This document shows positions 6,742-8,301 of a DNA stretch of 64,000 nucleotides, in pieces. The notes below the pieces were generated by a model. It saw only the letters and a program-made list of their open reading frames with translations. It ran no database searches and was not told the origin of the DNA. The stretch lies in the NCBI GenBank assembly GCA_036501625.1, contig DASXZY010000009.1:28117-92116 (forward strand), given 5' to 3'. This DNA comes from Verrucomicrobiia bacterium. GTDB lineage: Bacteria > Verrucomicrobiota > Verrucomicrobiia > Limisphaerales > Palsa-1400. Made by a program: the position numbers and the translations under genes. The first letter of the stretch is position 1, and each line of letters starts with the position of its first letter.

Positions 6742-8301
6742 ATGCAGACCTTTGCGCAAAGCCAGCATCATAATCAAAAGCCGGCGTCCTCCGGGCCGGC
6801 TCGGTCTCACATTGCAAAAACTAAACACGATTTTCACGAACATCCCGTCACGCATTTGCAGCGCGCCCTTGGCAATCAAGGAGCAGGACGGATGTTGGAA
6901 ACTCGTGCTGAAGAACGCGCAGCCGGCACGACAATCACGTCATTACGCCGCTTTGGGCACGATTTTAGCCGGATTCCCATACATCCGGCTTCGGCTGGGG
7001 TGATTCAAACTAAACTGGCAGTCAACCAGCCGGGAGGCAAATGCGAGCAGGAAGCAGACAGCGCCGCCAAACGAGTGATGCGCATGCCCGAACCGCGACT
7101 CCAGCGCAAATGCGCCTGCGGCGGCACACCCGGTTCCGACGGGGAATGTGCGGAATGCAAACGGAAAAGAGTGCAACGCAACGCCGCTCAACCTTCAACC
7201 GCCAGCGCTCAACCTTCCGAAGCGCCACCGATCGTCAATGAAGTCCTGCGTTCGCCCGGCCGGCCGCTCGATGCCGCGATTCGCACGGATATGGAGCCTC
7301 GGTTTGGCCATGATTTCAGCCGGGTGCGCGTGCATACTGATTCCCGCGCGGCCCAGTCCGCGCGGTCTGTCAATGCCGCGGCCTACACTGTTGGCAGCGA
7401 CATCGTATTCAGCATGGGGCATTACGCGCCCGGCACTTCCAATGGCAAAAACTTAATGGCTCACGAGCTCTCGCATGTGGTTCAAAATGCCCGCTCCGCA
7501 CCCGGCGCCGGAATAAGTTCCCCTGGCGACGCCTCGGAGCGGGAAGCGGAAAGCATGGCAGGCCAGGCTTTATCCGTGGGATCGGGCCGGAATACTCCGG
7601 GGACAACGGGCGGTTCAGCCACTCCCCCGTTCCTTTCCCGATTGGTGTCCGGAAACTTCAATTGCGCGGCTGGAACCGATGGCGCCTCGGCAAATCCCCT
7701 TCCCGATGTCACCGCGATGGACGCGCAGGCGCTCACTTTCGCGCAGGGAGCGGTCGGAGTATTGAATGCCTATTCAATCAACGTGGCCGGCGGACATCGC
7801 GACGCGACGGCCCAGGTTGACGTCGCCTATCAAAATCGCTTTGGCATTCCTCCCGCCTCGGGCGCGGGTTTTTTGAATCGACTTACCGGAACCGTGCGTC
7901 CGACTTTTAACCAGGCCTTCGCGGAAGAGTTATCCATCATGTCCCGCCGGTTTCAACTTGTCGCCAACCTCTTTTCCCAAAATGTCATCTATCGCTGCAA
8001 TCATGGCGGGATCACGTTCGCGGGATGCGGGCCTATTAATTGTAACAATATATTTGCTGAATCATGCGCTGGCATCGGCGTCATCTTCCTTTGCCCCACA
8101 TTTTGGACGGGCAACAACGCGAACCAGCAAGCGGCGATACTGGATCACGAGGCCATGCACATAATTCTTGCCGCAGTTGGAGACACGGCGCTTCGGGGTT
8201 CAGGAGGAAACTTCCGGTTCGCGGAGTGTTATGGCTCGTTCATCGCCGACCTCAATGGATTTGCCACCAATGTCGCGGCCTGCCCCGCGCCTGGTCCTTA
8301 G
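6742..8301 (+). CDS. DUF4157 domain protein (putative HExxH zinc-metallopeptidase-like toxin/effector N-domain) with a Cys-rich C-terminal domain holding a second HExxH
   Basis: PRFGHDFSRVRVHTDSRAAQSARSVNAAAYTVGSDIVFSMGHYAPGTSNGKNLMAHELSHVVQ matches the DUF4157 (PF13699) signature closely. A degenerate first copy RRFGHDFSRIPIHP and the typical LQRKCACGG...CAECKRKRVQR motif are present. The C-terminal ~250 aa are Cys-rich with HEAMH. No signal peptide. Confidence 0.8.
   Translation: MQTFAQSQHHNQKPASSGPARSHIAKTKHDFHEHPVTHLQRALGNQGAGRMLETRAEERAAGTTITSLRRFGHDFSRIPIHPASAGVIQTKLAVNQPGGKCEQEADSAAKRVMRMPEPRLQRKCACGGTPGSDGECAECKRKRVQRNAAQPSTASAQPSEAPPIVNEVLRSPGRPLDAAIRTDMEPRFGHDFSRVRVHTDSRAAQSARSVNAAAYTVGSDIVFSMGHYAPGTSNGKNLMAHELSHVVQNARSAPGAGISSPGDASEREAESMAGQALSVGSGRNTPGTTGGSATPPFLSRLVSGNFNCAAGTDGASANPLPDVTAMDAQALTFAQGAVGVLNAYSINVAGGHRDATAQVDVAYQNRFGIPPASGAGFLNRLTGTVRPTFNQAFAEELSIMSRRFQLVANLFSQNVIYRCNHGGITFAGCGPINCNNIFAESCAGIGVIFLCPTFWTGNNANQQAAILDHEAMHIILAAVGDTALRGSGGNFRFAECYGSFIADLNGFATNVAACPAPGP

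Follow-up and report, generated by a model that had tools for sequence, protein, structure and literature searches.

A DUF4157 protein with a predicted aspzincin-type C-terminal domain encoded near dnaA in a Verrucomicrobiia bacterium, a probable eCIS-type effector

We analysed a 64,000-nt stretch of DNA from a Verrucomicrobiia bacterium (Limisphaerales, Palsa-1400; GenBank assembly GCA_036501625.1, contig DASXZY010000009.1, positions 28,117 to 92,116 of the forward strand), referred to below as the window. It harbors at positions 6742-8301 a gene coding for a 519-amino acid (aa) protein that combines an N-terminal leader, a DUF4157 domain and a Cys-rich C-terminal domain. According to its structural model the C-terminal domain has an aspzincin fold, and this payload is probably a divergent aspzincin (M35)-type zinc endopeptidase, a chemistry predicted from its conserved residues. 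The family of DUF4157-aspzincin proteins is normally encoded in or beside the operons of extracellular contractile injection systems (eCIS), next to the eCIS AAA+ ATPase. We hold it to be reasonably probable that the gene codes for an eCIS-type ("PVC-type") polymorphic effector with the three-part build of the AlgoCIS cargo protein Cgo1, delivered by an eCIS encoded elsewhere. The parts of the gene are the following:

6742..8301, + strand: complete open reading frame (ORF) with an ATG start, 519 aa, comprising leader, DUF4157 domain, linker and aspzincin-like domain
6742..7263, + strand: N-terminal leader (aa 1-174), hydrophilic and basic, a candidate eCIS loading sequence by analogy with AlgoCIS Cgo1/2
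7264..7494, + strand: DUF4157 / eCIS_core / PVC-metallopeptidase domain (aa 175-251), matched by PF13699
7495..7626, + strand: Gly/Ser/Pro/Ala-rich linker (aa 252-295), 77% disorder-promoting residues
7627..8298, + strand: predicted aspzincin (M35-like) zinc metallopeptidase domain (aa 296-519)

A three-part protein with a predicted zinc endopeptidase payload

As a first-pass annotation made from the sequence had pointed out, the C-terminal domain is Cys-rich and carries a second HExxH motif (H469EAMH473, nt 8146-8160). It has eight Cys. Six of these Cys (308, 419, 434, 451, 496 and 514) are at least 96% conserved among 84 relatives. The invariant or nearly invariant positions of the family, all present in the window protein, are C308, F367, C419, C434, C451, W455, H469, E470, H473, C496 and C514, and every residue that is invariant or at least 90% conserved is retained, both HExxH motifs and the six Cys included. 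The catalytic Glu of the C-terminal HExxH is kept in 82 of the 84 relatives. A candidate third zinc ligand is D481 (nt 8182-8184), located eight residues after H473 in the sequence AVGDTALRG, which has no YG; the aligned position is occupied by His in 43 relatives and by Asp in 19. E495, a gluzincin-like candidate for the same role, was ruled out because it is conserved in just 37 of the 84 sequences.

The family profile matches the peptidyl-Lys metalloendopeptidase GfMEP of Grifola (1g12; E=1.3e-6) and AsaP1 (E=9e-4), with the HExxH motifs aligned; a single-sequence search against the PDB sequences gave no match, even at E<=10. The domain was modeled with high confidence in a run of 42 sequences, its first 10 residues having a low pLDDT (predicted local distance difference test); an earlier model from three sequences had a pLDDT of 65. 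The ranked matches of the domain are deuterolysin (1eb6, 15.1), the Grifola enzyme (1g12, 14.6), AsaP1 (2x3a, 12.0) and Pra1 (9n47, 9.4), the next match (7.0) being unrelated. At first the region had looked like a distinct, unrecognised payload, a reading that finds no support: PF14521 (Aspzincin_M35) already matches it weakly (18.7 bits) and matches 65 of the 84 relatives at E<=0.01 (best 4e-10).

As in the M35 enzymes 1eb6, 1g12 and AsaP1, the HExxH lies on an equivalent helix and is shortly followed by an acidic candidate third ligand. The window domain differs from them by its low identity (14-18%), an extra long N-terminal helix, a third ligand at +8 outside any GTxDxxYG motif, and its fusion behind DUF4157 instead of a Sec signal and propeptide. 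C434 and C451, which flank the "LC..FW" strand, align with C77 and C97 of 1g12, a pair that forms a disulfide in that enzyme. The pattern of the six conserved Cys agrees with that of the disulfides in secreted M35 enzymes of fungi, which suggests a protease working in an oxidising compartment such as the periplasm or the outside of the cell.

The central domain is a clear DUF4157. PF13699 (DUF4157, now named eCIS_core) matches aa 175-251 with 119.6 bits (cut-off 22; E=6.7e-35), covering positions 1-77 of the 79 of the profile, so that the textbook motif noticed in the first reading is borne out by the profile search. The HExxHxxQ-E signature, defined with its Glu ligand on a downstream helix (PMC3482391), was read from the translation: H241ELSH245VVQ corresponds to HELSHVVQ at aa 241-248 (nt 7462-7485), and a Glu-helix motif, SEREAES, is located 3' of the domain at aa 266-272, within the linker. 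H241, E242 and H245 are each kept in 82-83 of the 84 relatives. No family was matched by an NCBIfam scan of the 519-aa protein. The arrangement is thus that of an effector, as initially proposed, with an N-terminal DUF4157 module (aa 175-251) fused to a C-terminal payload (aa 296-519); neither of the findings named in the first reading as refuting it applies, since the DUF4157 match is strong and the M35 peptidases do not belong to the housekeeping enzymes.

The leader shows several recognizable features. It contains LQRALGNQ at aa 39-46. It also harbors a degenerate copy of the first DUF4157 strand motif, which is real but short: RFGHDFSRIPIH (aa 70-81, nt 6949-6984) and RFGHDFSRVRVH (aa 187-198) share 9 identities over 12 residues (pairwise E=3e-6), and EQEAD at aa 102-106 repeats the E-x-EAD helix motif represented by SEREAES after the domain. 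Finally, the LQRKCACGG...CAECKRKR motif reported earlier is present at aa 120-143, with its CxC...CxxC part at aa 124-139. There is no hydrophobic N-terminal segment (best 19-residue Kyte-Doolittle mean of -0.14 over the first 60 residues), and by this measure no signal peptide or transmembrane segment, in agreement with the first reading.

Other DUF4157 proteins share the whole leader at 48-58% identity; the majority of them are truncated, and at least one, P0156, ends in a different C-terminus. The genes of these leader-bearing proteins are found either in dispersed DUF4157 islands that also hold fragments of transposases (L012, L013) or adjoining a WHD+AAA ATPase (L014). Such sharing follows the "constant head, variable tail" pattern known from polymorphic toxins. 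In L012 and L013 (ENA sample ERZ25039565), several DUF4157 genes lie scattered among Transposase_mut and Y2_Tnp fragments, and some are apparently split by frameshifts, for example L013 1128-1850, which overlaps a DUF4157 + OmpA gene at 1792-3312. This pattern suggests frequent shuffling and decay of DUF4157 cassettes.

A family of DUF4157-aspzincin proteins in eCIS cargo slots

The family became visible by an exhaustive HMMER profile search of 1.84 billion proteins. A word-indexed homologue search had given two relatives with the C-terminal domain, from which the profile of the exhaustive search was built, and 19 with the 42-sequence profile. At E<=1e-3 the family counts at least 234 cluster representatives (50% identity), 86 of which are found at E<=1e-30. 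Most members are 400-460 aa long, with the aspzincin-like domain at the extreme C-terminus, and PF13699 precedes this domain in 82 of the 84 full-length members scanned.

We examined the loci of eight family members located by their exact sequence and of six others from reference genomes. Ten of 12 independent loci are eCIS-linked, the gene being either inside an eCIS operon or beside its AAA+ ATPase; the 12 include the window and another orphan (L011), and exclude L002, whose contig is too short to extend past an effector array. The full operon order is present in L003 and L015, with overlapping parts in L004/5 and L016-18. It consists of sheath, tube, T4_baseplate, an unannotated gene, Pvc16_N, a WHD+AAA ATPase and a conserved 85-108-aa ORF, followed by the DUF4157-aspzincin gene, either by itself or accompanied by one to four further DUF4157 genes, then CIS_tube, the spike (Phage_base_V) and gp25. 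In complete operons the DUF4157-aspzincin gene occupies the cargo slot, which extends from the ATPase to the second tube gene. Its position in this slot varies, being the first in L003, L004 and L015 and the last in L016; together with the presence of other DUF4157 proteins in the slot, this indicates that the family behaves as cargo and not as a structural core gene. Searches by tblastn with the proteins of these operons identified the same eCIS machinery around the family member of Calidithermus chliarophilus, an Anaerolineae metagenome-assembled genome (MAG), Nitrosomonas nitrosa and a gammaproteobacterial MAG, and P0282 (L019) is encoded immediately 3' of an AAA ATPase gene.

In Nitrospira sp. 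NS4 the gene belongs to an array (L010, 5293-13540) that lies immediately 3' of the eCIS-type AAA ATPase gene and is formed by DUF4157-YkuD, an 840-aa DUF4157 protein, DUF4157-aspzincin, astacin(-PPC), an unannotated gene and amidase_2-SH3. P0002, the closest full-length relative, has this array on its contig too (L002, 64-7685), with an extra unannotated 196-aa gene before the astacin. Several proteins of these two arrays look aimed at the cell wall. The DUF4157 module is combined with YkuD, OmpA or unknown C-termini in neighboring genes of L002, L010 and L013.

The small ORF (85-108 aa, no Pfam match) that separates the eCIS AAA+ ATPase gene from the first of the DUF4157 cargo genes is 36-51% identical across phyla and was observed at L003 9747-10004, L004 5808-6134, and in L006, L007, L008, L009, L015 and L016. 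It could code for a loading adaptor or chaperone. No homolog of it is present in the window.

An orphan gene among local repeats

The 519-codon frame with its ATG start reads as first described, and a 37-kb metagenome contig of JGI (Ga0376652_0001942) has the identical protein among its gene calls as well as the same upstream genes. A Shine-Dalgarno-like AGGAAA precedes the ATG by 7 nt. A promoter scan of the upstream region, limited to the sigma-70 type, gave no sigma-70-like promoter. The GC content at third codon positions (GC3) is 0.608, against 0.64-0.79 in ten neighboring genes. The gene had been placed in an islet of lower GC; this stands for the flanks (0.51) and the low GC3 but not for the ORF itself, whose GC content (0.588) equals the window mean (0.589). 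The AT-rich stretch noticed before the gene is also present, with a GC content of 0.47 at 6201-6600.

Two repeat families bracket the gene, as previously noted:

5933..5969, + strand: repeat B, copy 1
6598..6634, + strand: repeat B, copy 2, 107 nt 5' of the start codon
6104..6232, + strand (122-nt match 6104..6225): repeat A, upstream copy, without the left inverted arm
8317..8470, + strand: repeat A, downstream copy, complete (154 nt), including inverted arms of 35 nt each (8317-8351 and 8436-8470)

The copies of repeat A are 91% identical over 122 nt (6104-6225 and 8344-8465) and those of repeat B are 86% identical over 37 nt. Neither repeat occurs elsewhere in the window, where no match is expected by chance, repeat A had no match in two scans of the metagenome collection, and Rfam had none in the region 5600-9000. 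The downstream copy of repeat A starts 15 nt 3' of the stop codon, and the fold computed for it is a long, very stable hairpin (-73.9 kcal/mol, z=-7.1). This copy may be an element resembling miniature inverted-repeat transposable elements, or a 3' stabiliser or terminator hairpin. The JGI contig ends inside this copy, which fits a repeat that confuses assembly. When the unit B1-A1 was compared with B2-A2 after removal of the gene, the repeats alone aligned, giving no clean evidence of insertion at an empty site. Horizontal acquisition remains plausible from the low GC3, the repeats and the orphan position of the gene compared with its eCIS-borne relatives.

Upstream of the gene lie a complete dnaA (3295-4662, + strand), for which the JGI contig shows the domains DnaA_N, Bac_DnaA and Bac_DnaA_C, and after it the gene of an ABC ATPase (4669-5649). 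The effector gene is thus located about 2 kb from dnaA and 1.1 kb 3' of the ABC ATPase gene, and the proximity of dnaA places this orphan probably close to the chromosomal replication origin. In 39 other translated ORFs, which include most of those with 200 aa or more, Pfam searches detected no sheath, tube, baseplate, Pvc16, Pvc15-like or type VI secretion system (T6SS; VgrG/PAAR/Hcp) family, and tblastn with 13 eCIS proteins had no match in the window. Beside the gene there is no candidate for immunity and no convincing ORF at 8302-8989. These results agree with the earlier remark that no injection, T6SS or immunity gene is adjacent.

Downstream are found a 2155-aa PA14/CHB_HEX_C/Big_7 surface protein (8990-15457, - strand), and further on an aldehyde dehydrogenase, MoxR/DUF58, a two-partner secretion (TPS) pair, TonB/ExbB, a 2986-aa Ig-repeat protein, a secretin and NHL-repeat proteins. 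The two-partner secretion pair (33167-39563, - strand) consists of a 1494-aa TpsA-like exoprotein with a TPS domain and a 634-aa ShlB/FhaC-type transporter with POTRA, and adjoins an AraC-type regulator gene (39564-40475). The gene of the 2986-aa Ig/I-set repeat protein (42987-51947, - strand) has three 300-nt copies located 612 nt apart (49812-51335), and the NHL-repeat proteins are 1379 and 1203 aa long (55937-63582, + strand).

Three small ORFs were also considered. A 91-aa ORF at 8517-8792 (+ strand) ends in …SSPQGFYRTRFVQ, similar (36% over 50 aa, pairwise E=6e-5) to the C-terminal domain of the neighboring surface protein of 2155 aa. This hints at a stranded remnant of a surface-protein C-terminus and a past rearrangement of the intergenic stretch. 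In the AT-rich stretch 5' of the gene, a 61-aa ORF (6357-6542, + strand) codes for a very hydrophobic peptide (…WVFSLVLALVGGPLIYVFLRVFHWQFYLSVLFATV…) that may be a small membrane protein or a chance frame. The 214-aa ORF that JGI annotates as a gene (5742-6386, - strand) is probably not real: no Pfam family matches it, and it overlaps both repeat families.

Delivery by an eCIS and the alternatives

The architecture of the protein is that of known eCIS cargo. PVC-metallopeptidases with the HExxHxxQ-E signature were described as N-terminal, probably self-releasing peptidases of toxins exported by PVC/eCIS, among which peptidase payloads were noted and immunity genes are frequently absent (Zhang et al. 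2012, PMC3482391). DUF4157 is a core marker of eCIS tied to toxins and stands N-terminal to variable toxin domains (Geller et al. 2021, PMC8213781), and 983 of 1130 predicted DUF4157 eCIS toxins (~87%) had no second annotated domain (Danov et al. 2024, PMC11297309). The window protein resembles these toxins by its constant N-terminal module joined to a variable C-terminal toxin domain, by a payload of a kind known among them and by the lack of an adjacent immunity gene, and such toxins often have several genes per genome; it differs in that no aspzincin/M35 payload was named in Zhang 2012 or Geller 2021 and in that it adjoins no eCIS gene. A full-text literature search found no paper linking aspzincins to eCIS cargo, and the DUF4157-aspzincin family itself is undiscussed in the literature searched.

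The closest parallel is Cgo1 (ALPR1_12695) of Algoriphagus machipongonensis, which has 498 aa compared with 519, no signal peptide, a hydrophilic or disordered N-terminal domain, a central DUF4157 with HExxH, and a C-terminal domain with a second HExxH predicted as a metalloprotease (PMC8894135). The parts follow the same order in both proteins, and the likeness of this C-terminal domain to the aspzincin-like family lies in the described architecture. Cgo1 is encoded in the AlgoCIS cluster and fills the tube lumen, where it was seen, whereas the window gene is an orphan. In AlgoCIS the N-terminal domain is needed for cargo loading and DUF4157 is dispensable (bioRxiv 10.64898/2026.05.27.728243), and by analogy with Cgo1/2 the leader of the window protein is a candidate for the same loading role. 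Aspzincin_M35 has moreover been validated as a toxic domain of T6SS effectors, in which HExxH substitutions lower toxicity (bioRxiv 10.64898/2026.09.28.754971). In these effectors (T6EC12 and relatives) an aspzincin-type domain serves as a toxin delivered by a contractile injection machine, as is proposed here; they differ in depending on a T6SS, in having cognate immunity proteins and in lacking DUF4157, and the window has no immunity candidate or T6SS gene.

Under the explanation that we favor, the protein would have three working parts: a hydrophilic, probably disordered leader, the DUF4157/PVC-metallopeptidase module and the M35-like payload. A Pvc15-like AAA+ ATPase would recognise the leader and feed the protein into the lumen of the tube of an eCIS particle whose genes would lie in another part of the genome. 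Contraction would release it into or onto a target cell, where the aspzincin domain would cleave target proteins, the DUF4157 module serving for processing or refolding instead of loading. The window copy is an orphan cassette of atypical codon usage, probably moved to its place from an eCIS locus or from another genome.

Several observations weigh against this explanation. No eCIS gene is present within the 6.7 kb upstream or the 55.7 kb downstream that make up the window. The copy of a betaproteobacterial MAG (L011), adjoining a DUF4372/RNase_T gene, is also a true orphan, so that use without a machine is possible. The conserved and probable disulfides sit uneasily with delivery into the cytoplasm, a reducing compartment, and Cgo1 is toxic in E. 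coli independently of either HExxH motif (PMC8894135). Concerning the domains, the disorder of the leader is seen in composition only (65% disorder-promoting residues; 26 Lys and Arg against 15 Asp and Glu), the canonical GTxDxxYG motif is absent from the C-terminal domain, and the PF14521 match of the window protein is below Pfam's own threshold (18.7 bits against a cut-off of 30; E=0.0025), for which reason it is not a called member of this family.

Some of these points would suit a stand-alone zinc protease, secreted or released by lysis, in which the leader and DUF4157 would be a pro-region for inhibition or folding, removed autocatalytically and comparable to the propeptides of AsaP1 and fungal M35 enzymes, with export through a different pathway or through a T6SS whose genes lie elsewhere. 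An orphan gene with no eCIS genes in 64 kb, the second orphan in L011 and six conserved Cys pointing to extracytoplasmic activity speak for such a protease, and DUF4157-type domains are also known in T6SS effectors, including in bacteria rarely having a T6SS (PMC6899460). The protein nevertheless lacks a signal peptide or transmembrane segment and the window lacks any T6SS gene, while eCIS linkage holds for 10 of the 12 loci of precisely this two-domain family and the same type of leader recurs in DUF4157 proteins of the eCIS-effector kind. We regard a stand-alone protease as unlikely, although it is the strongest competitor of eCIS delivery.

Less probable again is a gene in decay, the relic of a cargo cassette that rearrangement among the repeats left stranded and that is neither expressed nor used any more. 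The local repeats flank it, one of them truncated, the surface-protein remnant at 8517-8792 lies nearby, the GC3 (0.61) is below the 0.64-0.79 of its neighbors, no sigma-70-like promoter was found upstream, and many leader homologs in the databases are truncated. Against decay stand an intact frame of 519 codons, the retention of all family residues conserved at 90% or more, including both HExxH and the six Cys, and a Shine-Dalgarno-like sequence 7 nt before the ATG, and the promoter scan covered a single promoter type. Finally, a non-proteolytic zinc-binding module, a zincophore such as the Candida protein Pra1 with its M35-like fold, is very improbable given the catalytic Glu kept in 82 of 84 relatives and a context of toxins instead of metal uptake.

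Returning to eCIS delivery, a broader role of the family can be put forward as a speculation that we judge unlikely. Instead of being simply one exchangeable toxin among others, DUF4157-aspzincin proteins might be quasi-conserved occupants of the cargo slot of one eCIS lineage spread over Deinococcota, Chloroflexota, Nitrospirota and Beta-/Gammaproteobacteria. Their protease, of the secreted type and probably stabilised by disulfides, could act in an oxidising compartment such as the periplasm or cell surface of the prey, and could also process co-loaded DUF4157 cargos; the orphans of the window and L011 would then indicate that the protein also works without a linked machine.

For the genome studied here the message is a small one: a single orphan effector near the origin, which may point to an eCIS in another part of the genome or to an acquisition in the past. 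For the family, a recurrent DUF4157 payload gains a fold and a probable chemistry, that of an aspzincin-type zinc endopeptidase, and a defined set of 234 or more clusters whose position in the operon is conserved becomes usable to probe the role of DUF4157 and the site of action of eCIS cargo.

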